64,000 bases of DNA from Rhynchopus sp. YZ270_cl-10. Lineage: Eukaryota. The stretch is from the NCBI GenBank assembly GCA_964035575.1, contig OZ037846.1, positions 496,001-560,000 on the forward strand, read 5' to 3'. Positions 6,901 to 45,534 of this stretch are shown here, piece by piece. Within the stretch, counting starts at the first letter, position 1, and each line of letters starts with the position of its first letter. The position numbers were made by a program, and so were the translations under genes. The notes under the pieces are model-generated. The model ran no database searches, had not been told where the DNA came from, and worked only from the letters and a program-made list of their open reading frames with translations.

Positions 6901-8442
6901 CAGCTTCCCGAGGTTCACCTTCAACGGCACACCGTCCTTCAGCGACTGCAGCTCCCCTGCCAGGTACGCAAGACGCTCCTGCAGGGGGGCGTCCCCGACA
7001 GCACGGATCGCCTCAATGCGCTGCTCAAGCAGGCACATGTGGAGGTGCTGTGCAGAGTGCTTCCCCACCTTTGTCTTCGTTGTGGTCGTGGCAGTGCACA
7101 GCGCCATCAGCTCTGCAGAGATCTGGTCGACCAGCACATTCAACCATTTGTTCAGCAGTGCTGTCTTCACTCCCGCAGTCTGCGACGGTGGTGTCTTCAG
7201 CTCAACCATGCAGTCCTCATCAAACAACGAGTTCACCACAACCTGCACAGCGCTGCTGTTGCTGCTGGCGACAGTGCCGTCGGAGACTACCCACTGTCTC
7301 AGCTCCCCGTTGCTCTTCCTGTCGACAGGGAACTGAAGGTCGAGGGTGTTGGTCTCTGTTCCTGTTCCTGTTCCGTCCGTCGTCGTGGTCGGGAAGGCCG
7401 TCAGCCCCTCAGGGAGACGCAGGGAGATCTGCACGCAGGAGGACTGCGCCGCAATTTCAAAGAGAGAGTTGAGCTTGTGGCTCAGTGTGTCGCCGTCGTC
7501 GCTCGGCTCAGCGTATCTGAAGGTGCCGTGTGTTGTGCCCAGCTTCCGCAAGTCCTCAAGGAAGGCTTTGTCGCAGCCAGACCCAAACCCGACGCTGTGC
7601 ACACTGATCGGCGCGTGCACGTCGCTGCGTGCTGTCCAGCTCTCAGAGAGGATCCGCTCAAAGGCCGCCGTCTCCTTTGAGTACGTCTGCCCGTCCGTGA
7701 GAAACGCAATCGTCACATTGCTCACATCGAACTCATCCAGCACAGCGTCCGCCGTCCCCGAGGCCTTGTGCTGCTCAAGAACCGTCGCAATCTTCTCGTA
7801 CGCACCCAAGAAGTTCGTCCCACCCCCCGCAGACATCCCTTCAATCATCCGCCGCGTTTCCGCATCTGTCTTCCCAGCCGTCTCGAGAATCGTCGCATAG
7901 CTGTCGTACGTAATCATCACTGTTTTCACCAACGGGTTGGAAGAGGTTACCCCGGTCATGTGCACCAGGGCCGACTGCACCTGCCGCCACGGCGAACCTG
8001 CCATCGAACCACTCTTGTCGACCACAGCAATGAAGAGCGAGGGCTTTGGTGTGAACTTCCCTTTCCGGAGACGCAGGGAGAGCTCGCAGATGTCTGTTGC
8101 GGTGTTGTCCTTGCCGACGACGGGGGAGAGGGAGGCTGACCACTCGTGTGTCGGCGGTGGTGGTGGTTGTTCTTGTTGCTGCTGTGGTGTGTTTGCCTCC
8201 ACCCCTGCCCCCGCCTGTACAGCAGCAGCCTCCGTGAGCGCAGACAACACAACATTGCCTGCCGCACCCTCAGCATCAAACTCACTCAAGTCCCCGTTGC
8301 AAAGCGGGCACCGTGCCACACTCTCAAACACAGTAAGCAGCGCAGCCCGTCCAAACGCCTTCCCACAGCACGGCACCGAAATGGGGTCCTCCAAAAGCGA
8401 CAGCGTGATGGGGCACGTCAACTCTCCAAGGATGCCGTCCAT
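3997..8442 (-). CDS. U-box/RING-like + VWA + ankyrin repeats + C-terminal ADP-ribosyltransferase-like domain, 1481 aa
   Basis: CPITLSLLEDPISVPCCGKAF..CPLC (U-box/RING). DKSGSM..GGTNF..FLTDG (VWA MIDAS). Many GxTPLH/GNTAL ankyrin repeats. C-terminus ALQKLPAHTGEVFVG..GTVFLLKSKSGRHI..S..NAEVMFPP.T.F.V fits the arginine-type ART fold. Confidence 0.88.
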   Translation of the reverse strand: MDGILGELTCPITLSLLEDPISVPCCGKAFGRAALLTVFESVARCPLCNGDLSEFDAEGAAGNVVLSALTEAAAVQAGAGVEANTPQQQQEQPPPPPTHEWSASLSPVVGKDNTATDICELSLRLRKGKFTPKPSLFIAVVDKSGSMAGSPWRQVQSALVHMTGVTSSNPLVKTVMITYDSYATILETAGKTDAETRRMIEGMSAGGGTNFLGAYEKIATVLEQHKASGTADAVLDEFDVSNVTIAFLTDGQTYSKETAAFERILSESWTARSDVHAPISVHSVGFGSGCDKAFLEDLRKLGTTHGTFRYAEPSDDGDTLSHKLNSLFEIAAQSSCVQISLRLPEGLTAFPTTTTDGTGTGTETNTLDLQFPVDRKSNGELRQWVVSDGTVASSNSSAVQVVVNSLFDEDCMVELKTPPSQTAGVKTALLNKWLNVLVDQISAELMALCTATTTTKTKVGKHSAQHLHMCLLEQRIEAIRAVGDAPLQERLAYLAGELQSLKDGVPLKVNLGKLSDSRFGSRFAGCSIAPQQTARPLPVRHVDTSSPPTPDRQLTAAPSFTREYRVSYTFSADARGRNNLQENLMQLNSTVLSTAFEQYLARSSVADVMYCDDDGNNALHLMAYAGQYNAMEEVLQSLAGRIRSGEVDVDCENNDGETPLTLSIKARGFWKVMKLLLEHGATFPAHRVEGLQAYAVDNRFTVTAAHIAAAAKASEAAGPLAFAMSMTCEYISFQYEAALESGRDVDVPRCLEVALAKRMPALVAQLLAECNDAEVATPDMLLTHCIPKKADDPLTEEYLALTRLLVAHRPALLHATNADGDTPLIKSAEKGSLPHVAYFLAQGCAVDARNALGNTALWVACAKCYPCIIAALIDAGADVNAANLKGNPPLYGSCQRGPVKIAEQLLACGAEVEGVVNRNGDTLILLCCRNGRHEVLKLLLQRVAPSFVAFKADVDGFDAMLACAEADQPHCIETLHAEGIPLDTTTDACNAILPSATPLHVAAYYGRLAAARTLLTLGADADARDISGRTPLHIAVLQGEPALARLLREHGADVDAKDDAMSTPAAYCTDDAVRSVLVDPALDCLMGLAGGLFPASEVSAACSVLREHAGARGCLAAKTCVDLHGTDNATPLLRAILHGQVDVARVLLDLGADPAQRNALDVNSFTLAKWCHSRVCAALPWGPGCAGALHATAQLARLQHAASLSSADAQVLFLQPQAQDNDGTGTTASGIQTRMEQSANLPLATAAMQEAYTAAFTDCAGGQAALVKVVESMGCLPQSAAVWRAKAHVVDLVASGNNMGLTPQEALLLSLHTSSAELAHAVNCLLWADQAKVATYVAHLNRALQKLPAHTGEVFVGARSVDRRLFTVGSEVTTSGYVFGSALWRVATGGTDFASKSKSGTVFLLKSKSGRHIGHCSQHAYNAEVMFPPCTSFKVTSWYRGDVICLGQANIREHTFKVKDDCEMQRLLASNKSLIIELQEQ

Positions 8443-10250: not shown

Positions 10251-10521
10251 TAAAAATCAGGTGGTCACTTGCTGCTAGCAGATATGCAACAAAACGCATC
10301 AATGTGAAAACAGGGGAGATAGTGGCGGAGAGTGGTTGATGCAAAGCGTAGTGACCTCCCTGCATTCTTTTTTTTTTCCGTCTACAATCGCCTGAGTACC
10401 CTTGATGGATACATACTTTATTTTTCTTTGACAAATTCTTAGAGTAGCGTAGTCACCTCGGTTGCGTTGCCACAGTTGGTGCAATATCCACTGTCATCTT
10501 TTTTTTTTGAAATCTTGCTTT

Positions 10522-11530: not shown

Positions 11531-13731
11531 GGGGAATAGTCAGTTATACCCTACCCTTTTTTTGAAATGGTCAGAGATACCCGAAAATAAGTTCAGATAT
11601 ACCCGAAAACCAGAAATAGGGCATAACTGACTATATCTGAACTTATTTTCGGGTATATCTGAACTTTTTTCGGGTATCTCTGAACTTATTTGGGGTACCC
11701 ACTTATTTGGGGGTACCCCCTTTGATTTTTTGCCCAGTGGGTGAGTGACCCACCATGAGGGAATGCGACAGCAGAGACAGTATTGAAGCAGCATGGTATG
11801 ATTTTCACCCCTCTACCCCACACACAGTTACTTTTAGTGGGGGTAAATACCCGCAAACCCGCAAACCCTTATACATGGTCCCTCGCTTCGCTTGGGAACC
11901 ATTAGTGCAGCAGGAAACTCTCTGTAGCGTGAAAAAAGGCTACCTTATTTCGCGGAAATACATAGTTATTACCACTTTTTTCATTAACCTCACCCTTCCC
12001 GACTACTGCGTTTGTACACCATACTTAATCACACCCCACATTTACACTCATCACAGGATCGTGAAATCTGAACTGCATCCGTGATTGCGATGAGCGCCGC
12101 TCTCCGACATTCAACAACTCAAAATACAAGGCTTCACCCAAATCAATCTATTCTAGATTTGTTTGTGGACGAAGACCTGGGGGTGGGAACACTTTGTCAG
12201 TCACTGCTATAGCCATTAACCCAGGGAGCATAGCTAGTGCAAGAAATTCGACTTTGGAAACCTTCCGGAAAGTCTGTCCTCTGCTTACGGAGGACGAGGC
12301 ACAAGAAAATATTGCGTTCCCCCAGAAAACCAGTGCACATTTCACACTCCTTGTGGGTGGTCTTGTTGCCTTTTTTGTCAAGTAATTTTGGCCCAGGCAT
12401 GCTCTTGAAGCATGACAATTTAGTGTGTATGGGGCAGGGTGTTGTTTTGTTCTGAATTCTCTTTGTTATAACATCTAAGTCAATCGCGGGTGGTGGTTTG
12501 TGTAGCGTGAGGCACTCTTTTTAGCAAACTTCCTGCGGCTGCTAAAGTGTTATTTCTTCGGATTTAACAACGTACAGCGTAACATAGTGGTTTCGCCTGG
12601 TCGACACAACCTTTGATAGATATGGGATAACCAACCCCCTTCGACCCCTCGTGGGTTCACTGAACAAGCCCTAGTGGTAGTTAAACGCGATTGACATTTA
12701 CATTCCTAGAGATGAAAGAACAAGATAACACTTCTGTACCCGCGCATCAAAATTGTGGAAAACTTTGCACCCCAAACACCCTCAACAACGCCCGCCAAAA
12801 GGCGCCCCTTGTTGCTGGGAGTTGGTTCTCATGATACCTGCACAGCGGGCATTCCTCTGAGTCCAACGCATGTTTGGCCTGTCTGCGGCGTTGTACTTCA
12901 GGTGCACGAAGACAGGGTCTGGTGGTAAATTTTGCGTAGTACTGCGACGTGGTACTGCGTGGGTCTGGGAACCTGGGTACCTGGGTACAGGAAATTTGTT
13001 GTGGAAGACATCAACCACCATGCATTGAGGAGGGTAAGACAGTGGTCGCAGTTTCTACCTGATAGCATTACAACATTTAACTTCTCCACGGGGGTCTTGG
13101 GCCGTTCACTCGGTTCTACCTTGACTACCGGAAGATATTCTTGAGGCCTTTCTGGTCTCTAGTATATCCGGTCTTCCCGAACGGAGGCACACTTTGTGTG
13201 TTACTACGACCTGGCAATTTCCAGCAGTAGGTTAAGTAATCTTTCTTGTAAATTGTTGGAACATTATCTCCTCAGTGCATGAATGCCCCACGTGACTGGA
13301 CACTTTTGTGTTTGTCATGTGGAGCTGTGGTTGCTCTTTCACGACTTTTTTCCTGTTCCTGGGTACCTGTTCCTGGACCTGGGTATCTGGGTATCTGGGT
13401 ATCTGGGTATCTGGGTATCTGGGTATCTGGGTATCTGGGTATCTGGGTATCTGGGCATCTGGGTATACCCGAAAACCAACTTTTTTGGGGTGCCCGAAAA
13501 AAGTTGGCGATATGGTCAGACATGCCCGAAAATAAGTTGAGAAATGGTCAGAGATACCCGAAATACCCGAAAATAAGTTCAGATATTGGTCAGTTATGCC
13601 CTATTTTTGAAAATGGGGCATCTCTGACCAATATCTGAACTTATTTTCGGGTATCTCTGACCAATATCTGAACTTATTTTCGGGTATCTCTGACCATTTC
13701 AAAAAGGGTAGGGCATAACTGACTATTCCCC
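11531..13731. mobile_element. Non-autonomous Mutator-like element carrying the shared core (element 1)
   Basis: Long TIR GGGGAATAGTCAGTTAT.CCCTACCC. 9-bp TSD ATTAATTTT at 11522-11530 and 13732-13740. Subterminal repeats include about 10 copies of GGGTATCT at 13381-13460. Confidence 0.9.
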
Positions 13732-19988: not shown

Positions 19989-21728
19989 CTACTTCACGGA
20001 ACACATCTGAGAGCAACACACAACACTGCACGTCCCAGAAGGAACTGCGTGTGCTGGTGTGCCAACCCCTCCCGCAGCTGTCCATGCCTTAGCAACGTCA
20101 AGGTCAGACTGCTCACCACGCAGGTACCCACGCACGGCAATGTTGTACTCCTCCCAATGCTTCTTCCCACCTATCATGTACATCCACTCGTCAACTGCTT
20201 CTGCTGCAGCACTTAGCTGAGCCATCACTTCTGCCACAACCTGTGCCTCACAACCAGAGGCAACCTCCACCTTGCACGGAAGCAGACGCAGCTGGTGTTC
20301 GCACTCAGCATCGCTGAAGCACATCCTGTTGCACACCACATCACACCCCAGCATACGCCCCACACGTTCCAGCCCGTTCACATCACGCACAAGCTCCCCC
20401 ACCATGCTGAACCGACGCATCACCTCACAACCCATGTCACCACGCAGCACCTTCCCAGTCGCAACACCAGCATTCACCTTCTCACAAAAGCTGTTCGCAC
20501 CCTTCAGAAGCAGGCTTGCTGCGTGCAGTGCAGATGTGGCATGTGTCGCACACTGCTTCGAGGCGTTGAACGAACAGTGGATCCTGTCCCCGATGAACAC
20601 GTCCACCATCCCACGTTTTGTCTCTGTTGCCTGCAGGGTCTTCAGGAGGAGAGTGGTGAAGAAGGAGGAGTAGGTCGCACTGTCCTTCTCCAGCAAATGC
20701 AGGGTGTCCTTCACGTTCAGTGTCAGCAGGGTTGTCTTCACCGAGGACAGACCCAGTGGCAGGCACACTGGCAAGTTTGATGCTCTTGAATGATGGGACT
20801 CTGTGGATGTGTCTGCTGTATCTGTCAGGTCACCCCCTTCGCTCTCTGAGTCCATCCTCTCCACCTCATCCTGAAAAGGCAGACACGTCTTCGGGAGGTA
20901 CGCTTTGTACATGCGCAGGTTCTTCTCCAGTCTCCACAGGGCAGCAGTCATCCCCTCAGGCAGGTCACCCCCATGCACGTCCAGCATCTCCGCCACCTGC
21001 TCCACGTCGTACCCCGCAAGAAGCGACGCAATCTCCTGCACAACGCTGATCGTGCGCCTCATTGACTCCTGCTCCTTCAGCACATTGTGCGCAAACCTGC
21101 GTGTCACGAAGAAGTCGATCAGGAAGACAAAAAGTGTGAAAATGAGGCCAACTTGGGGAAATGATGTCTTGCAGGGTGGGAACTCGCAATCTGCCTTTTC
21201 CTGAATCAGCGCTCTTCTGCTGTGCTCACCTTCGTACGGTGGCAACCCAGGAAGGTCAAACAAACCAAACCTGAAGGATTCCTCACATGACATGAGACAC
21301 AGCCACACCACTGTCGCACCCACGAACCATGCACTGTACCGTGATGGGACTTGCATCACAAGCAATATGTCCACAACCAGGATTAGAAATGGCCAGTTAA
21401 GGTAACCGTAAGTACGTGCCTCCAAATCCCACATGCATATTGCAGTGCCAGAGAAGTACATGATGCCCACCACAAACGTGGTGTTGAGTTGCTGTTTGCA
21501 GAGCATCTTAACAATGACAACGGACCCAGCTGCGATGAATATGCAAGACCCGAGAAGGTGAACAATCTGGTGCTGCACGTCGGTCTTCCCCTGATAAGAA
21601 ACGTAGCAAGCAGCAACCAGGTGAGTCAATGCTGAAACCACAGAGACCGCAAACATGATGGTGCGCTTCTTCACCTCGTCAGCACTGAGAGACCCGTCAA
21701 TGGTCAGTGCGCTGTTCAGGCACCGCAT
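19989..21728 (-). CDS. Multi-TM class III nucleotidyl cyclase-like protein, copy 1
   Basis: About 6 hydrophobic helices, LRMYKAYLP helix, then LLTLNVKDT, VDVFIGDRIHCSFNA, GKVLRGDMG..RFSMVGELV and DEWMY. ATG at 21728 (MRCLNSAL). Confidence 0.85.
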   Translation of the reverse strand: MRCLNSALTIDGSLSADEVKKRTIMFAVSVVSALTHLVAACYVSYQGKTDVQHQIVHLLGSCIFIAAGSVVIVKMLCKQQLNTTFVVGIMYFSGTAICMWDLEARTYGYLNWPFLILVVDILLVMQVPSRYSAWFVGATVVWLCLMSCEESFRFGLFDLPGLPPYEGEHSRRALIQEKADCEFPPCKTSFPQVGLIFTLFVFLIDFFVTRRFAHNVLKEQESMRRTISVVQEIASLLAGYDVEQVAEMLDVHGGDLPEGMTAALWRLEKNLRMYKAYLPKTCLPFQDEVERMDSESEGGDLTDTADTSTESHHSRASNLPVCLPLGLSSVKTTLLTLNVKDTLHLLEKDSATYSSFFTTLLLKTLQATETKRGMVDVFIGDRIHCSFNASKQCATHATSALHAASLLLKGANSFCEKVNAGVATGKVLRGDMGCEVMRRFSMVGELVRDVNGLERVGRMLGCDVVCNRMCFSDAECEHQLRLLPCKVEVASGCEAQVVAEVMAQLSAAAEAVDEWMYMIGGKKHWEEYNIAVRGYLRGEQSDLDVAKAWTAAGGVGTPAHAVPSGTCSVVCCSQMCSVK

Positions 21729-23412
21729 CGTTGGGCTTTTGATCCTCACAAACCTTTGCTATGTGTGGAGCAGGGGTGTGTGGATGTGTGTTGTGTGCAC
21801 TGGTGGGTGGTGTGGGTTCAGTGTTGGGAGATGGACGTAACCACCACAATCGGGGTACTTCACACAGAACTTAATCTATCGCGGGAGGAAGAGAAATAGT
21901 AACCCTGATGGTCAGTAAAAGGGGGGGAGAAAGGCTTTTTCGTTGCTCAATTGCCCTGCTGGAGGTGGGAGGGGTGATTGGGCGTATCTGAGGATAGTAT
22001 TTCTCCGACCGAGCCAAGCAGAAAACGGAAGATGCACAGACACTGCAAGTTCAGACAGTGAAACACCACCCGTCAAGAAGTGGAAGCTCAACAAAACAAA
22101 ATGCTACTAACCAACACCAGACCGACAACTACTTCCATTCCGCTGCAGACGGGGCAGTACTGGTACCAGAGTACTGACCTGGAGAGCATCGGCAGGGGGA
22201 TGTTCTCGAACTGGAGCGACACGACCTTCTGGTGCTTTGGCCTGGTGGACGACCCAGGCATCTGACTGCCCTAATGATTCTGATACTGTCGATCACGCGT
22301 TGCACACTTCCGAGCATCGTCTGAGAGAGGCAATGGAAACAGGCCACAGAGTTGTTTACGTCTTCTGTAAGCTACGCTTTGTAGGTTTAAAAAGAAAGAA
22401 AAGATGGGAAATTGAATTTTTTTTTCTTTGAAGATGTGTGAAGGGGATAAGATAGGTAGGCTTTTGATGTGAAGCAGTTCCACTCCTTGTGAAAGGAGGG
22501 TAGGGGAGGAGGAGGGGAAATAGTTCTGTACAAAAAAAAAAAGCAAAACGAAAAAGAAAGAAAAAAAAGAAGTTGAAAGTGCAAACGCCTCACCGTTCAT
22601 CGGCGGACGCAGGCACTGAAAAAAAAAATTATAAGATAAACCTAAGTCTCTCGTGCTTAGCTTATCTTAAACACAACACGCATAACAATATTTGATCAAA
22701 AAAAAGCTGGTATATGTTGCATAAAACATTGGAGCGTAAACCCTGTCCGTGCAAATGCGAGATACCGTACACCTTCTTGGGTGCAACGGCACAGACAGTT
22801 CTCTGCATGAGGCACGCAAGCAGTGTTTTAGTCTCTTCACAAAAAAAAAAAAAAGAGTAAATTTGAAATACAAAAAAAGCCGCGTTCATTTCTTCTCTAT
22901 TATCACCAATCATCCTTTGGAGCGAAAGACGCCACGGAAGTGGTCATAATTTCTCCAAGCAGAGTGGGGGTTTTTTTGTTCTCTTTTTTTTTGAGCAAAA
23001 AAAAAAAAAAAAAAAAGAAAAAAAAAGGGGGGAAAAAAAACTGGTGTGTTGCTACCTCATTTATGTGATGCCCCATTGACTTCTCCATTTAAAAGCAAAA
23101 GTGAAGCTGGTGTGCAAAACGCCTCTGACTGGCACTGACACTCCGCGGGGTTTGAAAATGTTTGTTGTTATGTTTGTACTCTTTGTTTTTGCTATTTTGT
23201 GTTTGTGTTTGTTTAGCTTTTTTAGATCCTTAACCAAAGCGATGTGCGAACTTTAATGTAGTTTCCGGCTTACTCTGTCGCAGTGGTTGTACGGGAACTT
23301 TCAGTGCTTTTTCAAAAAAAAAAAAAGGAAAAAAAGAAAAAAGGAAAAAAAAAGGGGGGAGAAAAAGTCAAAATAACCTTGTTTTTCAAAATAAATGTCA
23401 AAATAAAAAATT

Positions 23413-23483
23413 CTGGTTTCAGCGGTCTGCTCCCTGACCAGGAAAAAGCCCTTCGACCGCGCTCATCAGAAGGAGCAAGGGCT
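23413..23483 (-). ncRNA. Predicted non-circularly permuted hammerhead ribozyme, copy 1
   Basis: Minus strand AGCCCUU-GCUCCUU-CUGAUGA-GC-GCGGUC-G-AAGGGCU-UUUUC-CUGG-UC-AGGGAGC-A-GACCGC-U-GAAA-CCAG. All core motifs and stems I-III are present. Confidence 0.72.
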
Positions 23484-23719
23484 AAAAAATAAAAAGGAGG
23501 GGGAAAAGGTAGGATACAATAAAAAGCTTTTTATGTGAAAGCAATTTTATTGGTTACAATGACGAAAAAACAGCAGCAGGAATTTCATGTTCTTTTTGCT
23601 TTTGTGTACAGGTATCGTAGCACGCCAACCTGTGGGCAGACAGTTTTCACAATATATGGGAAACGTGTCGTATGATGAGGTGTTCTTCACACAATTCGTT
23701 ATGTTTATGGTGCTCCTAC

Positions 23720-26064
23720 TAAAAAGTAACGAGGCGCACAAACCTTAAAGCATGACAACAACCGTTATTTGTGTTTCAGTGATTCCAATAAAGGGTCCTT
23801 GAATCAGAGAAGGAATTTACCAGGCTCCTTTGTCGAACTAGCCAGGTTCGAGACAAGCATGATATTAGGTTTTGGGCCGCATGTTTGTGCTGTTCAAATG
23901 GAAATATATTGGAGGACACAGGAATATACAAATAGTTATTATACATAGCGCTCTAATTAGAGTATTAGGGTATAATTAGAGTCTGGGATTTTGGGCCAAG
24001 TCAGTTAGAGTCCAGTTAGAGTATAATTAGAGTCGCTTTTCTTCAATTAGACTATAATTAGAGTGCAGTTAGAGCATAATTAGACTCTAACTACACTCTA
24101 ATTATAGTCTAATTAGAGTAAAACAACAGGCTTCTTGTAGGTGCAAACGCCGTAAGGAACCGGTTCCCCTAAGGTTCCTCTGTAGGACCCAGGTGCCCAG
24201 ATACCCACATAGCTGAAAATAAGACTTGGGGAACCGAGTTCTCAGCCGGACTGGGACACAATATGTGAAGGCGCTGTGGTCCGCCTGAAAGCGGGTCGGG
24301 GACCCGGTCGCGGGAGGGTGGGGGCCTAGTCCTAGTCCTACTGTACCTAGTACCCAGTACCGGGACTCGGGACCCGGCTTATTCTCAGCTATGGGCACCC
24401 AGGTACTCAGACCCGCGCAGTGGCACATGCCCTCAAGTGTGTGTGCCCCATACATTAGGGAATGCGATGCAAAAACTCTATGTGCACCTCCGGTGCAACG
24501 CCGCAGACAGGCCAAGCAGCGTTGGACTCAGAGGAATGCCTGCTGTGCAGGTATCAAACATGAGAAACTCCCAGCAACAAGGGGCGCCTTTTGGCGGGCA
24601 TTATTGAAGGTGTTTGGGGTGCAAAATTTTCTACAAATGTTGATGCGCGGGTACAGAAGTGGTGTCTTGTTCTTTCATCTGTAGGAATGTAAATATCAAT
24701 CGAATTTAACTACCACTAAGGGGTCGAAGGGGTAATCCCAGTATCAAAGGCTGTGTTGACGGGAAATCTATAGCGAGCATACGTTCATTTCAGCCGAAGA
24801 AATACTACTTATGAACCCAGGAGAGATCCAAGCCTCGCGTTGAACAACTACCCGCGATCGACAATACCAAAAGAGAATTCATAACAAAACAACACTGCCC
24901 CATACACACTAAATAGCCATGCTTCAAGTGCATGCCCCTGGGCCAAAATTCCTGTGCTAAAAAGGCAACAAGACCATCCACAAGGAGTGTGAATTGTGCA
25001 CTGGTTTTCTGGGGGAACAAACAATATTTTCTTGTGTCTGGTTCTCTGCAAGCAGAGAACAGACTATCTGGATTACAAAGTAGAATTTCTTGCACTAGCT
25101 ATGACCCCTGGGTTGATGGCTATAGCATTGATTGATGTGCCCCTCTTTATTGACCCTCTTATAGGACTCTAATTAGACTCTAATTAGAGTCCAGTTAGAG
25201 TATTAGAGTTCAGTTAGAGTTTTAAAGACTCTAATTATACTCGAACTGCCGACTCTAATTATCTAGTTAGAGTCTAATTGGAGCGCTATGTATAAGTTAT
25301 TGTTGCAGTATCTTCTTACTTTATTTGCGACGTAAAAGAAAATGGGGGGGAAACATAGGATCAGACAAGAAAATGCATGTTGCAATCGCGCGTAAAGCTA
25401 ACGATAAGCCACCCTGCAACACGGTTCATCGAGGCTCGTTGACCTACCTCAGGCTAATTTATTCAAAACAAAACCTTTTGGGGGCTTGTGGAAAAATGCC
25501 TTCTATCGTGAAGTGTGGTATCTATAGATGGACTTCATGAAGTACGTAGGTATTGCAAGTCTTGCGTTTCTATTTAAAAATTAACGAGGCACACAAACCT
25601 TAAAGCATGACAACAACCGTTATTTGTGTTTCAGTGATTCCAATAAAGGGTCCTTGAATCAGAGAAGGAATTTACCAGGCTCCTTTGTCGAACTAACCAG
25701 GTTCGAGACAAGCATGATATTAGGTTTTGGGCCGCATGTTTGTGCTGTTCAAATGGAAATATATTGGAGGACACAAGAATATACAAATAGTTATTGTTGC
25801 AGTATCTTCTTACTTTATCTGCGACGTAAAAGAAAATGGGGGAAAAAATCAAAGGATCAGACAAGAAAATGCATGTTGCAATCGCGCGTAAAGCTAACGA
25901 TAAGCCACCCTGCAACACGGTTCATCGAGGCTCGTTGACCTACCTCAGGCTAACTTATTCAAAACAAAACCTTTTGGGGGCTTGTGGAAAAATGCCTTCT
26001 ATCGTGAAGTGTGGTATCTTTAGATGGACTTCATGAAGTACGTAGGTATTGCAAGTCTTGCGTT
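23720..26064. repeat. About 490-bp tandem duplication inside the hammerhead element; first copy split by a MITE
   Basis: 23720-23939 plus 25301-25568 matches 25576-26064 with few substitutions. Confidence 0.85.
23940..25294. mobile_element. Non-autonomous TIR element with TAT..ATA ends and 6-bp TSD (IS3EU-like), carrying the shared core (element 3)
   Basis: TIR TATACATAGCGCTC. TSD AGTTAT at 23934-23939 and 25295-25300. The empty site CAAATAGTTATTGTTGC is visible near 25784. CTCTAATTAGAG-type subterminal arrays. Confidence 0.88.
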
Positions 26065-26543
26065 CCTTCTTGTTCAGGGGGAGGAAACTTAAAATAAATT
26101 GAAAAAGACCCTGCTTCTCAAGGGGTCGTTCAAGGTTTTAAATATAAAGGAGTACTGTTTGTTTTTGTTTCTGGCTATGTACATACACTTTTGTGTAGCT
26201 CAATAACCTATTGCGCCCGGCGCCTCTCTAGTCCAGCAGGCCGTATACCGTAGGCAACGCGGTGACATAGTGATAGGGGAGTTTGAAAATGTTTGTTGTT
26301 ATGTTTGTACTCTTTGTTTTTGCTATTTTGTGTTTGTGTTTGTTTAGCTTTTTTAGATCCTTAACCAAAGCGATGTGCGAACTTTAATGTAGTTTCCGGC
26401 TTACTCTGTCGCAGTGGTTGTACGGGAACTTTCAGTGCTTTTTCAAAAAAAAAAAAAGGAAAAAAAGAAAAAAGGAAAAAAAAAGGGGGGAGAAAAAGTC
26501 AAAATAACCTTGTTTTTCAAAATAAATGTCAAAATAAAAAATT

Positions 26544-26614
26544 CTGGTTTCAGCGGTCTGCTCCCTGACCAGGAAAAAGCCCTTCGACCGCGCTCATCAG
26601 AAGGAGCAAGGGCT
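26544..26614 (-). ncRNA. Predicted non-circularly permuted hammerhead ribozyme, copy 2
   Basis: Identical to 23413-23483. Confidence 0.72.
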
Positions 26615-27659
26615 AAAAAATAAAAAGGAGGGGGAAAAGGTAGGATACAATAAAAAGCTTTTTATGTGAAAGCAATTTTATTGGTTACAATGACGAAAAA
26701 ACAGCAGCAGGAATTTCATGTTCTTTTTGCTTTTGTGTGACTCCGCGGGGTTATCGGACCCTCCCCGGAATGCTGCACTTTGGAGTTGCTGACAGGGAAA
26801 CACAAACGGGGGTGGATTGTGTTTTTGTATAGTTTCTTTTCCTTTTTTTTGATAAATTGTTGGAGTAGTGTAGTTGCCTCGGTTGTGTTGCCACAGTTGT
26901 GCAATCTCCGCTGTGCAGCATTCCGGGGAGGGTTCGGTAACCCCTTTTTTTTTTTTGAATAATCAAGCCTTGCCAAATAGAAATGGAAAATGGCGGATGG
27001 TGCCCGCTTTAGCGGATTTGGTTTGCTTACTTCGACTTTACATGCACCTCACCTCACATTCATCGGTGAAATAAACACAAATTATTTTGCGGTGCAATAA
27101 ACGGAAAAGTGTTTTATTGTCTTTCATTTTATGCATTTATGCTTCACTGTCGTATCCTGAAGTCGTTTTCTATTATTTCATTTTTTTTTTTTGGCCTTTT
27201 TTATTTGCTTCTGCTCTTGTCGTTGCTTTTTTGTTGTATCTCTTTCCTTCCTACTAAGCCATCCCCTCCTATCTAAGAGGTGAAACCAGCCGCGCCACCG
27301 ATGTCGTGAGCTGCTCACGTGTCAGCTTGCTGAACTTAGGGTCCGTTTTGTCTATGTACTTGGCGTACAACTTCTGTCTCAGATCGCGCCTGCAGTCCTT
27401 CCGCTCATAAAACCTATTTTTTTGTTGTTTCGACAAACACCTAAAAGGAACTATCTGAAAATCTGACATCCTTATTTCACAAAAAGAGTAGTTGAAACCT
27501 AAAACGCATCTCAGTCAAGCTCATGCAAAAGGGTGGGACGTGGGCGACAATACAAAATGCCTTTTGATACAAGATCTCAACGATTAAGATATTATTTTTC
27601 AATCGAAAGATGGAGTTTTTATCCACTCTCTACACAGATCTCAAAGAGAAATACGGTAA

Positions 27660-28208: not shown

Positions 28209-29251
28209 TAGGGGGTGCGATGAGGCCGTTTTTTCTGTAACACACCCGAAAAAATCATAAAAAGTGTAAAAAAAAATCAGTCGAAAACACAAAATCACCC
28301 CAGGAAACACATTTGGTGGACTATTCCTTACTTTTTGGTGCCTTTTTGGCACTTTTTGGCACTTTCCCCCCCGATTTTTTGACACTTTTTGTCGCATTTT
28401 CACCCAATTTCCCCCTTTTCTGAGGGTATTTGATACAGGGCGATTTATCAAAAAATTCAAAAATTTAAAATATTCCAATACAAGAGGAAAAGTGGATTTT
28501 TCCAGTCATATGTGTGCACAGAGTGATTTCCGTGGGGTTTTGGGGCCAAAAGTCCATTTTTCTTTATGTCTTCGCTGAAAATTTTGAATTTTTTTTATAC
28601 ACAAAAACCACATTTTAGCCGGGAGGAGAAAGTGTTGCAAAAGTGTTGCAAGAGGGGTTTTTGACCTGCAGGCACCAAAATCGACCAAAAAGTGGTCGCA
28701 AATATGATTTTCCACCCCTCCTGGGGTGGGGAGGGTAACTCCTGAGGGTTTTTGTGACCTCTGTGGACCTTTGGGTGGAGTTTTTTGGGTTCTCAGGTAC
28801 GGAACAAGTCTGGAAACTACTAATGTATAGGTGATTTTTAGCGTTGCACCCGACGAAACACCTCTTGGAGACCCAACCTGGACCCCTAAAAGTCACAAAA
28901 ACCACATAATTCCACCCTGGGACCCCATATGAGGGCGAATGGAGTGTTTTTTTGGTGTTTGGAGGGTTTTCTGGGGGCTCGGGAGAGTATTTTCGAAAGT
29001 GTTGCATTTCGGCCAAGACGTGTTACATTTTTGTTACATGTTTTTCGTGATTTTTTCAGAAAAAATGCATTTTTTTTGGGTAGGAAAGCTCCTGCGGTGA
29101 TCGTCCGGTATTTTACTGGGATATTTTGCTGGTCCCCAGGCGGATTTGCGGCCAGGTACGCCCTTTTTAGTGGGATTTTTGACCTAAATTTCAAAAAAAT
29201 GGGTTTGTTACACTAATTCCTTAAGGATTTCTACTACCGTTGCACCCCCTA
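28209..29251. mobile_element. Non-autonomous TIR element related to the 41862-44156 foldback
   Basis: TAGGGGGTGC/GCACCCCCTA ends, flanked by C(n)AT on both sides. The right part (AAATTTCAAAAAAATGGGTTTG..TCCTTAAGGATTTC) resembles the foldback arm. Confidence 0.7.
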
Positions 29252-29369
29252 CCCCCCCCCCCCCCCATCCCCTCCCTTTCCTCCCCTTCATGCAGAGTAA
29301 CGCGCCCTTCCTCTCCAACCCCATCTACAAAACTATCAAGCACAATTAAACAGAGCACAAAAAGCACTT

Positions 29370-33974: not shown

Positions 33975-35708
33975 CTACTTCACGGAACACATCTGAGGGC
34001 AACACACAACACTGCACGTCCCAGAAGGAACTGCGTTTGCTGGTGTGCCAACCCCTCCCGCAGCTGTCCATGCCATAGCAACGTCAAGGTCAGACTGCTC
34101 ACCACGTAGGTACCCACGCACGGCAATGTTGTACTCCTCCCAATGCTTCTTCCCACCTATCATGTACATCCACTCGTCAGCTGAAACTGCTGTGTCCTCT
34201 TCTTTCGCAATCAGTTCCGCCACAACCTGTGCCTCACAGCCAGAAGCAACCTCCACCTTGCACGGAAGCAGACGCAGCTGGTGTTCGCACTCAGCATCGC
34301 TGAAGCACATCCTGTTGCACACCACATCACACCCCAGCATACGCCCCACACGTTCCAGCCCGTTCACATCACGCACAAGCTCCCCCACCATGCTGAACCG
34401 ACGCATCACCTCGCAACCCATGTCACCACGCAGCACCTTCCCAGTCGCAACACCAGCATTCACCTTCTCACAAAAGCTGCTCGCACCCTTCAGAAGCAGG
34501 CTTGCTGCATGCAGTGCAGATGTGGCATGTGTCGCACACTGCTTCGAGGCGTTGAACGAACAGTGGATCCTGTCCCCGATGAACACGTCCACCATCCCAC
34601 GTCTTGTCTCTGTTGCCTGCAGGGTCTTCAGGAGGAGAGTGGTGAAGAAGGAGGAGTAGGTCGCACTGTCCTTCTCCAGCAAATGCAAGGTGTCCTTCAC
34701 GTTCAGTGTCAGCAGGGTTGTCTTGACCGAGGACAGACCCAGTGGCAGGCACACTGGCAAGTTTGATACTCTCGAATGATAGGACTCTGTGGATGTACCC
34801 GAACACTCTACCACGTCGCCGTCTTCACTATCTGCCTGCATCGTCTTGCCCACCTCATCCTGAAACGGCAGACACGTCTTCGGGAGGTACGCTTTGTACA
34901 TGCGCAGGTTCTTCTCCAGTCTCCACAGGGCAGCAGTCATCCCCTCAGGCAGGTCACCCCCATGCACGTCCAGCATCTCCGCCACCTGCTCCACGTCGTA
35001 CCCCGCAAGAAGCGACGCAATCTCCTGCACAACGCTGATCGTGCGCCTCATTGACTCCTGCTCCTTCAGCACATTGTGCGCAAACCTGCGTGTTACCAAG
35101 AAGTCCACCACGAAGACAGCAAGAGTGGAAAGGGAGCCAAATACGGAAAACGATGTCGCGCAGGGAAGGAACTCGCAGTCTGCTTTTTCTATAACCGCCG
35201 CTCTCCTGCTGTGCGCACCTTCGTACGGTGGCAACCCAGGGATGTCAAACAAGCCAAACCTGAAGGATTCCTCACATGCCATCAGGAGAAGCCACACCAC
35301 TGTCGCACCCACGAAACCTGCACTGCATCGTTCTGGCACTTGCATCACAAGCAACATGTCCACAACCAGGATCAGAATTGGCCAGGCAAAGTAATCATAC
35401 GTGCGTGCGTGCCAGTCCCACAAGCAGATTCCAATGCCAACGAGGTACATGATGCCCACCACAAACGTGGTGTGCAGTTGCTGCTTGCAGAGCACCTTAA
35501 CAATGCCAACAAACCCAGCTGTGACGATGGAGCAGGACCCGAGCATGTTAACAATCCGGTGTTGCATTCTCTTCTCCTTAAAAAATGCCGAAGCAACCAA
35601 AGTCGCCACAGCTGCATACACACAGAACGCAAACATGATGGTGCGCATCTTCGCCTCGACAGCACTGAGAGACCCGTCAATGGTCAGTGCGCTGTTCAGG
35701 CACCGCAT
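33975..35708 (-). CDS. Multi-TM class III nucleotidyl cyclase-like protein, copy 2
   Basis: Paralog of 19989-21728 with near-identical C-terminal half. Confidence 0.85.
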   Translation of the reverse strand: MRCLNSALTIDGSLSAVEAKMRTIMFAFCVYAAVATLVASAFFKEKRMQHRIVNMLGSCSIVTAGFVGIVKVLCKQQLHTTFVVGIMYLVGIGICLWDWHARTYDYFAWPILILVVDMLLVMQVPERCSAGFVGATVVWLLLMACEESFRFGLFDIPGLPPYEGAHSRRAAVIEKADCEFLPCATSFSVFGSLSTLAVFVVDFLVTRRFAHNVLKEQESMRRTISVVQEIASLLAGYDVEQVAEMLDVHGGDLPEGMTAALWRLEKNLRMYKAYLPKTCLPFQDEVGKTMQADSEDGDVVECSGTSTESYHSRVSNLPVCLPLGLSSVKTTLLTLNVKDTLHLLEKDSATYSSFFTTLLLKTLQATETRRGMVDVFIGDRIHCSFNASKQCATHATSALHAASLLLKGASSFCEKVNAGVATGKVLRGDMGCEVMRRFSMVGELVRDVNGLERVGRMLGCDVVCNRMCFSDAECEHQLRLLPCKVEVASGCEAQVVAELIAKEEDTAVSADEWMYMIGGKKHWEEYNIAVRGYLRGEQSDLDVAMAWTAAGGVGTPANAVPSGTCSVVCCPQMCSVK

Positions 35709-36211
35709 CGTTGGGCTTTTGATCCTCACAAACCTTTGCTATGTGTGGAGCAGGGGTGTGTGATGTGTGTTGTGTGCACTGGTGGGTGGTGTGGGTACAG
35801 TGTTGGGAGATAGATGTGACCACCACAATCGGGGTACTTTGCACAGAACTTAATCTCACACGGGACAGGGTTCGCATTTTAGTGAACACGATTGTTTTGG
35901 TGATGGTGTGTCGGAGTAAATAGTGTGCGGAGCAGGGGACGTCAGGTGGGATCAAGACGTACTCTCTGACGTGCGTGCATCGCGGAGACTAAAGGGAGTA
36001 TGGCGAGGATAATAGTACAATTTCTCCCCCTTTTTTTGTGCAAAATGTGTGAAAACAGTGAGACTCGCCGTGTGCCATGTGTTCATAGGCGTCGTCCTTC
36101 GCGTCCACCTCGGCCTTCTTCTCCATAAGTGTCGTGGATTGAAAAACGTTGCCTTTCTGCTATTGAACATGAAGCAAGCGCCAGATGTAAATCTGAGCAA
36201 ACACAACAGTG

Positions 36212-37945
36212 CTACTTCACGGAACAGATCTGAGGGCAACACACAACACTGCACGTCCCAGAAGGAACTGCGTGTGCTGGTGTGCCAACCCCTCCCGCAG
36301 CTGTCCATGCCATAGCAACGTCAAGGTCAGACTGCTCACCACGTAGGTACCCACGCACGGCAATGTTGTACTCCTCCCAATGCTTCTTCCCACCTATCAT
36401 GTACATCCACTCGTCAGCTGAAACTGCCGTGTCCTCTTCTTTCGCAATCAGTTCCGCCACAACCTGTGCCTCACAGCCAGAAGCAACCTCCACCTTGCAC
36501 GGAAGCAGACGCAGCTGGTGTTCGCACTCAGCATCGCTGAAGCACATCCTGTTGCACACCACATCACACCCCAGCATACGCCCCACACGTTCCAGCCCGT
36601 TCACATCACGCACAAGCTCCCCCACCATGCTGAACCGACGCATCACCTCACAACCCATGTCACCACGCAGCACCTTCCCAGTCGCAACACCAGCATTCAC
36701 CTTCTCACAAAAGCTGCTCGCACCCTTCAGAAGCAGGCTTGCTGCATGCAGTGCAGATGTGGCATGTGTCGCACACTGCTTCGAGGCGTTGAACGAACAG
36801 TGGATCCTGTCCCCGATGAACACGTCCACCATCCCACGTTTTGTCTCTGTTGCCTGCAGGGTCTTCAGGAGGAGAGTGGTGAAGAAGGAGGAGTAGGTCG
36901 CACTGTCCTTCTCCAGCAAATGCAGGGTGTCCTTCACGTTCAGTGTCAGCAGGGTTGTCTTCACCGAGGACAGACCCAGTGGCAGGCACACTGGCAAGTT
37001 CACACTTCTCGAATGTGAGGACTCTGTGGATGTGACTGCTGTCTCTGTCAGGTCACTCCCTTCGCTCTCTGAGTCCATCCTCTCCACCTCATCCTGAAAA
37101 GGCAGACACGTCTTCGGGAGGTACGCTTTGTACATGCGCAGGTTCTTCTCCAGTCTCCACAGGGCAGCAGTCATCCCCTCAGGCAGGTCACCCCCATGCA
37201 CGTCCAGCATCTCCGCCACCTGCTCCACGTCGTACCCCGCAAGAAGCGACGCAATCTCCTGCACAACGCTGATCGTGCGCCTCATTGACTCCTGCTCCTT
37301 CAGCACGTTGCGCGCAAACCTGCGTGTCACGAAGAAGTCGATCAGGAAGACAGCAAGGGAGGAAAGGGAGCCATGTGGGGGAAATGGTGTCTTGCAGGGA
37401 AGGAACTCGCAGTCTGCCTTTTCGATAGCCGCCGCTCTCCTGCTGTGTTCACCTTCGTACGGCAACAACCCAGGAAGGTCAAATAGGCCAAACCTGAAGG
37501 ATTCCTCACATGCCATCAGGAGAAGCCACACCACTGTCGCACCCACGAACCATACACTGTACCGTGATGGGACTTGCATCACAAGCAACATGTCCACGAG
37601 TAAGATCAGTATTGGCCAGGTAAGGTATTCATTAGTACGTGCGTCCAAATCCCACAAGCAGATTCCAATGACAAATAAGTACATGATGCCCACCACAAAC
37701 GTGGTGTGCAGTTGCTGCTTGCAGAGCACCTTAACAATGACAACAGACGCAGCTGTGACGAATATGCAAGAGCCTACTTCGTGAACAAGCCGGTCTTGTA
37801 TGCCATTCTTCTGCTCCTGAAGCAAAGAAAAAACAACAGTCAAGACAGCTGCGTACACACAGAACGCAAACATGGTGGTGCGCTTCTTCACCTCGTCAGC
37901 ACTGAGAGACCCGTCAATGGTCAGTGCGCTGTTCAGGCACCGCAT
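36212..37945 (-). CDS. Multi-TM class III nucleotidyl cyclase-like protein, copy 3
   Basis: Paralog with intact ORF. Confidence 0.85.
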   Translation of the reverse strand: MRCLNSALTIDGSLSADEVKKRTTMFAFCVYAAVLTVVFSLLQEQKNGIQDRLVHEVGSCIFVTAASVVIVKVLCKQQLHTTFVVGIMYLFVIGICLWDLDARTNEYLTWPILILLVDMLLVMQVPSRYSVWFVGATVVWLLLMACEESFRFGLFDLPGLLPYEGEHSRRAAAIEKADCEFLPCKTPFPPHGSLSSLAVFLIDFFVTRRFARNVLKEQESMRRTISVVQEIASLLAGYDVEQVAEMLDVHGGDLPEGMTAALWRLEKNLRMYKAYLPKTCLPFQDEVERMDSESEGSDLTETAVTSTESSHSRSVNLPVCLPLGLSSVKTTLLTLNVKDTLHLLEKDSATYSSFFTTLLLKTLQATETKRGMVDVFIGDRIHCSFNASKQCATHATSALHAASLLLKGASSFCEKVNAGVATGKVLRGDMGCEVMRRFSMVGELVRDVNGLERVGRMLGCDVVCNRMCFSDAECEHQLRLLPCKVEVASGCEAQVVAELIAKEEDTAVSADEWMYMIGGKKHWEEYNIAVRGYLRGEQSDLDVAMAWTAAGGVGTPAHAVPSGTCSVVCCPQICSVK

Positions 37946-38164
37946 CGTTGGGCTTTTGATCCTCACAAACCTTTGCTGTGTGTGGAGCAGGGGTGTGTGG
38001 ATGTGTGTTGTGTGCACTGGTGGGTGGTGTGGGTTCAGTGTTGGGAGATGGACGTAACCACCACAATAGGGGTACTTTGCACAGAACTTAATCTCACACG
38101 GTACAGGGTGCGCATTTTAGTGGACACGGCTGTTTTGGTGATGGTGTGGGAGTACAGACAGTAG

Positions 38165-39284: not shown

Positions 39285-41021
39285 CTACTTCACGGAACAG
39301 ATCTGAGAGCAACACACAACACTGCACGTCCCAGAAGGAACTGCGTTTGCTGGTGTGCCAACCCCTCCCGCAGCTGTCCATGCCTCAGCAACGTCAAGGT
39401 CAGACTGCTCACCACGCAGGTACCCACGCACGGTAGTGTTGTACTCCTCCCAATGCTTCTTCCCACCTATCATGTACATCCACTCGTCAACTGCTCCTGC
39501 TGGATCACTCAGCTGAGCCATTACTTCCGCCACAACCTGTGCCTCACAACCAGAGGCAACCTCCACCTTGCACGGAAGCAGACGCAGCTGGTGTTCGCAC
39601 TCAGCATCGCTGAAGCACATCCTGTTGCACACCACATCACACCCCAGCATGCGCCCCACACGTTCCAGCCCGTTCACATCACGCACAAGCTCCCCCACCA
39701 TGCTGAACCGACGCATCACCTCACAACCCATGTCACCACGCAGCACCTTCCCAGTCGCAACACCAGCATTCACCTTCTCACAAAAGCTGCTCGCACCCTT
39801 CAGAAGCAGGCTTGCTGCGTGCAGTGCAGATGTGGCATGTGTCGCACACTGCTTCGAGGCGTTGAACGAACAGTGGATCCTGTCCCCGATGAACACGTCC
39901 ACCATCCCACGTCTTGTCTCTGTTGCCTGCAGGGTCTTCAGGAGGAGAGTGGTGAAGAAGGAGGAATAGGTCGCACTGTCCTTCTCCAGCAAATGCAGGG
40001 TGTCCTTCACGTTCAGTGTCAGCAGGGTTGCCTTTACTGAGGACAGACCCAGTGGCAGGCACACTGGCAAGTTCTCATTTCTCGTATGTGAGGACTCTGT
40101 GGATGTATCTGCTGTTTCTGTCACGTCGCCCCCTTCGCTCTCTGAGTCCATCCTCTCCACCTCATCCTGAAAAGGCAGACACGTCTTCGGGAGGTACGCT
40201 TTGTACATGCGCAGGTTCTTCTCCAGTCTCCACAGGGCAGCAGTCATCCCCTCAGGCAGGTCACCCCCATGCACGTCCAGCATCTCCGCCACCTGCTCCA
40301 CGTCGTACCCCGCAAGAAGCGACGCAATCTCCTGCACAACGCTGATCGTGCGTCTCATTGACTCCTGCTCCTTCAGCACATTGTGCGCAAACCTGCGTGT
40401 CACGAAGAAGTCGATCATGAAGACAGCAAGAGTGGAAAACAGGCCAAGTGGGGGAAATGATGTCTTGCAGGGCAAGAACTCGCAGTCTGCCTTTTCCAAA
40501 ATCACCGCTCTCCTGCCGTGCTCACCTTCGTACGGCAACAACCCAGGAAGGTCAAACAAGCCAAACCTGAAGGATTCCTCACATGCCATCAGGAGAAGCC
40601 ACACCACTGTCGCACCCACGAACCATGCACTGTACCGTGATGGGACTTGCATCACAAGCAACATGTCCACAACCAGGATTATAATTGGCCAGGCAAAGTA
40701 ACTATAAGTGCGTGAGTGCAAATCCCACAAGCAGACACCTACGCTGAAAGAGTAGATATACCCCACCACAAACGTGGTGTGCAGTTGCTGCTTGCAGAGC
40801 ACCTTCACAATGGCAACAAACCCAAGGATGACAACTATGCAAGACCCGAGTTCGCTAACCATCCGGTGTTGCACGTCAATCTTCTGTCCCTGGGTCAGCA
40901 AAGCAAAAACAACAGGCAAGACAGCTGAAACCACACAGAACACAAACATGATGGTGCGCTTCTTCACCTCGTCAGCACTGAGAGACCCGTCAATGGTCAG
41001 TGCGCTGTTCAGGCACCGCAT
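39285..41021 (-). CDS. Multi-TM class III nucleotidyl cyclase-like protein, copy 4
   Basis: Paralog with intact ORF. Confidence 0.85.
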   Translation of the reverse strand: MRCLNSALTIDGSLSADEVKKRTIMFVFCVVSAVLPVVFALLTQGQKIDVQHRMVSELGSCIVVILGFVAIVKVLCKQQLHTTFVVGYIYSFSVGVCLWDLHSRTYSYFAWPIIILVVDMLLVMQVPSRYSAWFVGATVVWLLLMACEESFRFGLFDLPGLLPYEGEHGRRAVILEKADCEFLPCKTSFPPLGLFSTLAVFMIDFFVTRRFAHNVLKEQESMRRTISVVQEIASLLAGYDVEQVAEMLDVHGGDLPEGMTAALWRLEKNLRMYKAYLPKTCLPFQDEVERMDSESEGGDVTETADTSTESSHTRNENLPVCLPLGLSSVKATLLTLNVKDTLHLLEKDSATYSSFFTTLLLKTLQATETRRGMVDVFIGDRIHCSFNASKQCATHATSALHAASLLLKGASSFCEKVNAGVATGKVLRGDMGCEVMRRFSMVGELVRDVNGLERVGRMLGCDVVCNRMCFSDAECEHQLRLLPCKVEVASGCEAQVVAEVMAQLSDPAGAVDEWMYMIGGKKHWEEYNTTVRGYLRGEQSDLDVAEAWTAAGGVGTPANAVPSGTCSVVCCSQICSVK

Positions 41022-41861
41022 CGTTGGGCTTTTGATCCTCACAAGCCTTTGCTATGTGTGGAGCAGGGGTGTGTGGATGTGTGTTGTGTGCACTGGTGGG
41101 TGGTGTGGGTTCAGTGTCGGGAGATGGACGTGACCACCACAATCGGGATACTTTGCACAGAACTTAATCTCACACGGGAGAGGGTGCGCATTTTAGTGAA
41201 CACGATTGTTTTGGTGATGGTGTGTCGTAGTAAATAGTGTGTGGAGCAGCGGACGTCAGGTGGGATCAAGACGTACTCTCTGCCGTGCGTGCATCGCGGA
41301 GACTAAGGGGAGTATGGCGAGATAACAGTACAATTGCTCCCCCTTTTTTTGTGCAAAATGTGTGGAAACAGTGAAAACATGGCATACATCCTTGCAGACC
41401 CATCCCCGTTCCGCGTATAAGACCCCACTATGACCACCAGCAGCACCTCTGCCAGTCTGCAAGGGTCATGTGCCGTGTTGTCTTTTTCGTCTTTCGCTGC
41501 AGTGTTGCTTTCTTCCTTCTCATTGCGTCGGTGCGCACGCTTCATGGATAAGGAGAGGTTGTGTGAATGTGGTGAAACGCACACACCTCGACCCGTCGGT
41601 GAAGTGTGGCTCTACTCCAACCCGCCCCGGATTAGAAAAATGGAAAAAAGGAAGGGTGTTCAATTTCCTTTTAGCATTGCATGTAATCAACAGTACTCTA
41701 TTCCTTTTTTAGGAGGAAAAGAGGGGGGTTTTGAAAGTTTGTTTGTTTTGTATTTGTTTTTGCTTTTGCTTTGGAAAAAGGGAGGGGGGAAAGGGGGTGT
41801 TGGTGCTTACCTGGAAAGGCGAAACCTGACTGCAGACAAATCGCTATGCAGTGGGGGGGGT

Positions 41862-44994: not shown

Positions 44995-45534
44995 CCTAGT
45001 GGGGGGGGTGGTGGGTTCTGACGTTTCCATGTCAGAAACAGGCACCCAAGCAACTATGTTTTATGCGTTTGATATGTTTCCTCACCCAGATGACACCTAA
45101 ATTGTGGAGTTATACAGCACCGCAGTTCTTAGGAAATAATAAAAACTGGAGGGACGGATCAAAGGATTGGAATGATGTGTACTTCGGAAATAAAAGCCCT
45201 TCTCTTTTTTCTGTCTCGACCCATCTAAGGGGGGTACGTAAGTTTGTGTATAAGTGTGTAAAAATTGACCGGCCCTTTGGGTGTTTGCAAAAAAATAACG
45301 TACCGAGCAAAATTGCCAAAAAATCTACGTCGGTAGCAATCCAGCGCGACCCCTGGAAAAAGGATGTCTCTTTTTCTTTTTTTCTTTTTTTGATAAATTG
45401 TTGGAGTAGTGTAGTTGCCTCGGGTGTGTGTTGCCACAGTTGTGCAATCACCACTGTATTTTTTTTTGTGAATAGCTATCCCGAGGTTGCGCTACACACA
45501 ATAGTAGTAACCCCCTTCTCCTCTCCGCTCCCCT

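Follow-up and report, generated by a model that had tools for sequence, protein, structure and literature searches.

A candidate type-CSG hammerhead ribozyme in the terminal repeats of a retroelement-like insertion from a likely diplonemid genome

Eckert, Friedrich, Weinberg and Weinberg (2023; PMC10085705) split hammerhead ribozymes into three blocks, C, G and S, and defined type CSG by the 5'-to-3' order of block C (CUGAnGA), block S (cleavage site) and block G (GAAA). As presented there, the type comprises two unique sequences (CSG-1, CSG-2; five in all), which come from soil metagenome DNA, are alike, and have so far appeared in print with neither host nor role. Both sequences cut at the predicted site, slowly (0.004 and 0.026 per min), and both contain an additional helix, here called the clamp, which the published search ignored. 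The closing pair 10.1-11.1 is G-C in both members and is fixed in the search pattern, i.e., an RNAMotif pattern that specifies CGAAA and allows no more than 10 nt in the linker; the type itself is defined by block order, not by this pair. The authors rated the evidence for CSG as weaker than that for type SGC (HRIMA-1 and its variants), which is likewise a non-circular permutation with a clamp helix and differs in its block order and in its 583 sequences from metatranscriptomes. The SGC clamp is needed for cleavage, as determined with compensatory mutants (PMC10085705). Our literature search found type-CSG hammerheads reported only in that paper and no later report: PMC13725137 merely cites Eckert et al., and the available sections of PMC10162972 and PMC10761166 contain nothing on the type.

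Hammerheads of types I and III are known from retroelements. The published model places them in the flanking repeats of Penelope-like elements (PLEs) and retrozymes, with circles serving as templates for more-than-unit copying in both the PLE (PMC4209133) and the retrozyme version (PMC4918200). Plant LTR retrozymes contain type III hammerheads in two direct repeats, which delimit a unit RNA between the cut sites, a non-coding interior of 300-600 bp with Ty3-gypsy boxes, and a 4-bp target-site duplication (PMC4918200). Animal non-LTR retrozymes consist of tandem units of 150-400 bp with a type I hammerhead and have been tied to PLE repeats (bioRxiv 10.64898/2026.07.22.740005). PLEs also contain type I hammerheads, the autonomous members encode a reverse transcriptase, an optional tail of 30-40 bp arises from two priming sites, and algae have non-autonomous PLEs that form partial tandems (PMC8557442). 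In one PLE, the priming of reverse transcription is internal and falls in an AC-rich stretch that lies downstream of the hammerhead; in vitro, the same element primes without target homology and inserts without a need for ribozyme cleavage (PMC11167929). Among euglenozoans, the ingi/L1Tc elements of trypanosomatids combine a self-cleaving ribozyme with target-site duplications (PMC12278014), and both LINE-type and SLACS reverse transcriptases have been reported from diplonemids (PMC10161547). A literature search that covered diplonemids by title and abstract found no paper linking hammerheads to diplonemids or to euglenozoan retroelements, and the available sections of the literature on PLEs, retrozymes and the diplonemid genome do not place PLEs in diplonemids.

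The window analysed here, i.e., the whole stretch of 64,000 nt, contains a 71-nt hammerhead motif on the minus strand and a second, letter-identical copy (Table 1). Stem I comprises 7 bp, one of them U·G (23476-23470 with 23429-23435). Stem II begins with the pair G10.1·U11.1 (23462/23421) and a bulged C (23461), followed by six Watson-Crick pairs (23460-23455 with 23422-23427), and stem III has 5 bp counting A15.1-U16.1 (23417-23413 with 23437-23441). In a pair-by-pair check, 7/7 pairs of the clamp were Watson-Crick; linkers of 0 and 1 nt connect it to the neighbouring stems. The core elements follow one another 5' to 3' on the minus strand as CUGAUGA, GUC and GAAA. Five of the six helix pairs cross, so the block order is not a circular permutation. 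Both sites, all four helices and the non-circular order had been described in a sequence-only reading of this DNA and are confirmed here; its proposal that the clamp would replace the usual loop I-loop II contact is upheld as a structural reading. The novelty that it implied for order and clamp does not stand, given that both are already in print as type CSG, as described by Eckert et al. (PMC10085705). What is new is the context, in retroelement-like repeats of a likely diplonemid genome.

Table 1. Coordinates of the putative ribozymes and of the surrounding insertion within the window.
Feature	Position	Strand	Remarks
Predicted type-CSG hammerhead, copy 1	23413..23483	-	71 nt; predicted cut between 23436 and 23435
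Predicted type-CSG hammerhead, copy 2	26544..26614	-	identical; predicted cut between 26567 and 26566
Block C core CUGAUGA	23463..23469	-	
Block S (stem III strand, GUC triplet, stem I strand)	23429..23441	-	GUC = 23438-23436
Block G (stem II strand, U11.1, GAAA, stem III strand)	23413..23427	-	GAAA = 23420-23417
Clamp helix, 7 bp	23447..23483	-	23483-23477 pairs with 23453-23447; block C lies between
Terminal direct repeat, 3' copy in ribozyme sense	23153..23607	-	455 bp
Terminal direct repeat, 5' copy in ribozyme sense	26284..26738	-	455 bp
Likely target-site duplication, left	23140..23152	.	13 bp
Likely target-site duplication, right	26740..26752	.	13 bp; one extra base (26739) before repeat
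Interior without recognisable coding	23608..26283	-	older tandem duplication of about 500 bp inside
Nested insertion, 1357 bp	23939..25295	.	45-bp terminal inverted repeats, 4-bp duplication; interrupts one copy of the interior duplication
AC-rich 3' part of repeat	23150..23300	-	coverage in public-run contigs far above flanks
Polypyrimidine tract downstream of ribozyme, then AG dinucleotides	23306..23367	-	possible spliced-leader acceptor

Judged by its sequence, the motif is a type-CSG hammerhead with every defining feature at that level: the block order C-S-G; the core of CUGAnGA, GAAA, NUH and the A15.1-U16.1 pair; stems of 7, 1+6 (one bulge) and 5 bp; and seven Watson-Crick clamp pairs at the position of the helix in the published alignment. 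It is predicted to self-cleave after GUC. Block order and clamp position are common to this motif, CSG-1 and CSG-2, whereas its stems, compared by eye, are unlike both in sequence, and the G-C closing pair of the published members is replaced by G10.1·U11.1 and a bulge. This difference may slow cleavage; our literature search on the effect of G10.1·U11.1 found nothing relevant. Position 11.1 is U in both window copies and C in one sibling segment from public contigs. The U at 11.1, the bulge and a 13-nt linker explain why the published CSG pattern does not match the motif.

The motif is not a chance match. Our own descriptor for the C-S-G order matched exactly two sites in the window, both of them the known copies. 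As a null set, we used 1500 dinucleotide shuffles of the window (192 Mb). With a loose setting of at least 4 bp in each of stems I, II and III, there were four matches, two of which had a clamp of at least 4 bp; none of the 1500 shuffled windows gave a match with a clamp of at least 6 bp or at the observed stem lengths. The expectation that standard models would miss such a permutation was also borne out, in that none of the 16 Rfam matches at E values up to 1 is a hammerhead and none overlaps the motif. The best nested fold (-23.0 kcal/mol) places the core against the cleavage-site strand in an inactive register. With z = -0.07 the motif does not stand out, which is to be expected, since nested folding cannot represent crossing helices. 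In prefix folding, no helix can form earlier than the clamp. We also scanned for relatives with loose patterns, which matched 68 metagenome loci and 3 plus 116 viral loci; the stems fit in none of these 187 loci, and a family-specific pattern gave no match in prokaryote genomes. Because part of stem III is fixed in these patterns, most of the more distant CSG ribozymes would escape them, both published ones included.

The earlier reading overlooked a more informative feature, namely that a single insertion, flanked by a likely target-site duplication, carries both copies in its terminal repeats. The insertion is 3.6 kb long and has no recognisable coding. Its terminal repeats agree at 455/455 bases and the ribozymes lie 3131 nt apart; as both copies sit in identical repeats, they represent a single event rather than independent observations. 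The 13-mer that forms the likely target-site duplication is present in the window only at the two insertion ends, and none of 3000 random end pairs shared 11 or more bases. The final six bases of the left duplication agree with the inner continuation (26278-26283) at 5/6 positions, and the one that differs would form a G·U pair on the assumption that the minus strand served as RNA template; this is a weak pointer. We consider it probable that the motif is a type-CSG hammerhead acting as the processing ribozyme of a non-autonomous retrozyme or Penelope-like retroelement, in a genome that is likely diplonemid.

The interior is older than the insertion. Its tandem duplication pairs 23720-23940 with 25575-25795 (215/219 identical) and 25296-25574 with 25790-26070 (270/279), which, set against the unchanged terminal repeats, indicates a young insertion of an older unit. 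The nested insertion has palindromic 11-bp repeats near both ends, and its core (24482-25135) recurs at 12197-12907 and 53514-54229 with about 78% identity. No frame inside the element exceeds 141 aa. Of the 68 stop-to-stop frames of at least 35 aa in or overlapping it, 25 were scanned, none of which passed the Pfam cut-off, and no reverse transcriptase remnant or autonomous partner was found among them. On the ribozyme's strand, 73% of the last 93 nt of the repeat are A or C. The polypyrimidine tract and AG dinucleotides downstream of the ribozyme are a possible spliced-leader acceptor. We also considered a tRNA-derived target; ARAGORN finds no tRNA gene in the window. Directly right of the insertion lies a short element (26747-26944) with inverted ends of 32-39 bp. 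Its inner part has further copies at 10422-10494 and 45373-45457, and a flanking duplication was not seen.

Thirteen of the 16 listed public sequencing runs contain part of this region and five contain at least half. We compared four runs from four studies (X1, X5, X6 and X8), all as contigs; runs X9-X13 contain a small share of the region's words (0.04-0.18) and were not counted as evidence. The exact ribozyme sequence is present in X1 and X8 (records 5 and 26), hence in at least two studies, and the left junction is unchanged in X5 (record 9). Among the loose ends listed for X1, X5 and X6, some run from the left flank into a right-flank-like sequence, which is what a target that is itself a repeat with empty members would give. 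In X1, contig depth, which when summed is a rough guide rather than a copy number, is about twice as high in the repeat (184-197) as in the interior (89). A deep contig in X5 (record 16) passes from the interior across the inner boundary of the repeat, and another X5 contig skips 112 bases just upstream of the ribozyme (23488-23601), a deletion variant of the unit. Coverage of 23150-23300 exceeds that of its flanks by one to two orders of magnitude, likely reflecting the end of a high-copy family, as for the 3' ends of a truncating retroelement family; this segment may be the 3' end of a SINE-like or PLE-like family. The listed contig pieces end near 23172-23175 and near 23147-23152, about 25 bp apart.

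Two records match the window over the ribozyme span only, at about 83% identity. Record 6 of X1 covers 23413-23484 with 12 differences in 72 positions, and record 15 of X5, a contig of 2417 nt whose two sides are both unlike the window, covers 23416-23476 with 10 differences in 61. Conservation confined to this span suggests selection on the motif. In a 30-nt sibling segment found in X1 and X5, two changes (23421 A>G, i.e., U11.1 to C; 23434 C>T, i.e., G1.2 to A) would each make a Watson-Crick pair out of a wobble pair, provided that the partner strands are the same as in the window; further changes fall in an unpaired linker. Three other single-letter changes listed near the motif lie in linkers (23454 and 23446) or outside it (23409). 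X5 also contains an insertion beside the clamp end (23447), unphased. In an unphased sibling loose end behind 23472 in X1 and X6, the clamp is separated from the core by just 4 nt, which means a shorter or decayed stem I in that sibling. The sibling changes listed for the four runs include no compensatory change on both sides of a helix.

The insertion would work like a retrozyme, yet falls outside both described retrozyme groups. It shares with plant LTR retrozymes a hammerhead in each of two direct repeats, a non-coding interior and a predicted unit RNA between cut sites, and differs from them in its ribozyme type (CSG rather than III), its 13-bp rather than 4-bp duplication and its interior of 2.7 kb. 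Type CSG and a 3131-bp unit likewise set it apart from animal non-LTR retrozymes. The partial-tandem structure of 1.15 units with the hammerhead in flanking repeats is shared with PLEs and animal retrozymes (PMC4209133, PMC11167929, PMC8557442, bioRxiv 10.64898/2026.07.22.740005), both of which differ in carrying type I hammerheads, and priming inside an AC-rich stretch downstream of the ribozyme would be a further likeness to PLEs (PMC11167929). Long duplications (15 bp) are also reported for Nematostella repeats. The 25 frames scanned in the element include none with a telomerase-like reverse transcriptase, with or without a GIY-YIG endonuclease, so it can be at most a non-autonomous PLE derivative. 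The ingi/L1Tc elements, which resemble it as euglenozoan retroelements with ribozyme and target-site duplications, differ in their 5'-end HDV-like ribozyme and poly(A) tail and, as described in the available sections of PMC12278014, have no terminal direct repeats.

A mobilization cycle that would produce such a structure can be outlined. The minus strand would be transcribed, probably by read-through of a same-strand cluster of host genes; 13 of the 16 long ORFs are on this strand, and genes of Diplonema papillatum are grouped in same-strand clusters that are likely co-transcribed (PMC10161547). The clamp would form first, once the nascent RNA reaches nucleotide 37, and tie the far ends of stems I and II together, standing in for the loop-loop contact. 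Self-cleavage of the two ribozymes would then free a unit of 3131 nt, whose 5'-OH and 2',3'-cyclic phosphate termini could be ligated to give a circle. A borrowed reverse transcriptase would start within the AC-rich part, at 283 nt downstream of the cut, with nicked DNA as primer and the 6-nt microhomology as an aid, and would copy about 1.15 units, crossing the cleavage junction twice; this more-than-unit copying would account for the terminal repeats and the target-site duplication. A stem-loop like that at the PLE priming site is unsupported here, given that the junction of tail and interior has no stable fold (z = +1.89). As for the partner enzyme, a Penelope-like element is our best guess, tentatively made; a LINE of the ingi or CRE kind comes next and seems doubtful.

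The insertion reaches from 172 nt upstream of the first cleavage site to 283 nt downstream of the second. As it spans both sites, its template had both junctions intact, as would a circle that was copied 1.15 times round or a multimer left uncut. Given that published CSG rates are slow and that a nested fold competes with the active one, the template may quite possibly have been uncut; a single insertion fits circular and multimeric templates alike. The same two observations bear on the alternative that the window ribozyme is a decayed or silenced CSG member, in which the G·U closing pair, together with the bulge and a competing helix, prevents cleavage, perhaps the reason why an uncut transcript was copied with both junctions intact. 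The sibling with canonical C11.1 and a Watson-Crick pair at 1.2 would agree with this, since the window copy may then be the derived and weaker form. Against such decay, every core nucleotide and all four helices are intact, and the exact sequence occurs in runs of at least two studies. The hammerhead consensus at 10.1-11.1 is a purine-pyrimidine order, which G·U retains. We regard decay as improbable, if worth keeping in view.

It is also unlikely that a real ribozyme sits in an arrangement made at the DNA level, by local duplication or two independent short insertions, as a passenger or as a cutter of polycistronic pre-mRNA between genes, beside the possible spliced-leader acceptor. The region is rich in nested repeats and contains another tandem duplication, the polypyrimidine tract lies downstream of the ribozyme, and the ribozyme is on the strand of most long ORFs (13/16 on minus). 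A DNA-level origin is at odds with the 13-bp duplication exactly at the outer ends, with the loose ends resembling empty sites and the siblings with unlike flanks, which fit a mobile unit, and with record 16 of X5, whose crossing of the inner repeat boundary fits a repeated unit rather than a solo repeat.

A true LTR element, i.e., a plant-type retrozyme or TRIM that is mobilised by integrase and has the ribozyme in fixed LTRs, would explain two identical 455-bp repeats, each with a hammerhead, around a non-coding interior. LTR elements generally end in TG...CA. The ends on the ribozyme's strand do not follow this rule, the duplication has 13 bp instead of 4 bp, and there is microhomology at the 3' junction. 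The available part of a review of trypanosomatid elements notes that typical LTR elements are absent there, and we judge this origin very improbable. The identical copies are what a mis-join would give, yet a chance match or assembly artefact is already largely refuted and scarcely credible beside the shuffle test, the ribozyme and left junction in independent runs, and the roughly doubled repeat depth in X1, itself a rough guide.

Under the preferred reading of a processing ribozyme in a non-autonomous retroelement, the place of the motif in terminal repeats would give type CSG its first host, context and biological job. The class gains strength from an example that is distinct in sequence yet retains all four helices, the clamp among them, to which the published search paid no regard; if one genome does contain a multi-copy family, this would supply the covariation missing for CSG. 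Our broader proposal is tentative: type-CSG hammerheads may be the signature ribozyme of a diplonemid retroelement family that moves via RNA circles, the non-circular permutation being an inherited design of eukaryotic nuclear retroelements and not a two-sequence curiosity. Such a divergent multi-copy family would have been missed by standard and published CSG patterns alike, the wobble pair hiding the motif from the latter and the permutation hiding it from Rfam.

The surrounding window contains several other features. Among named relatives of a cysteine protease, those of Diplonema papillatum are closest (60, 54 and 53% identity); nearer matches are protist transcriptome proteins (76-78%). 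Together with the long uninterrupted ORFs, most of them on one strand as in D. papillatum gene clusters, this makes a diplonemid host likely, if not proven. Five minus-strand copies of a gene for a membrane protein of 580-600 aa, which may resemble nucleotide cyclases, are located at 19989-21749, 33975-35729, 36212-38017, 39285-41042 and 48993-50795. The two of the five copies scanned had no Pfam match; 380 homologues were found, and the best 120 of the 380 are nearly all on long contigs of apparently one assembly. An ORF of 1481 aa at 3997-8442 (minus) combines a RING-like finger, vWA, ankyrin repeats and a C-terminal ADP-ribosyltransferase domain. Finally, a nested inverted-repeat structure of about 2.3 kb at 41853-44133 is related to 28676-29260, and perfect tandem arrays with units of 8 bp and 7 bp occupy 44261-44412 and 52950-53117, respectively.
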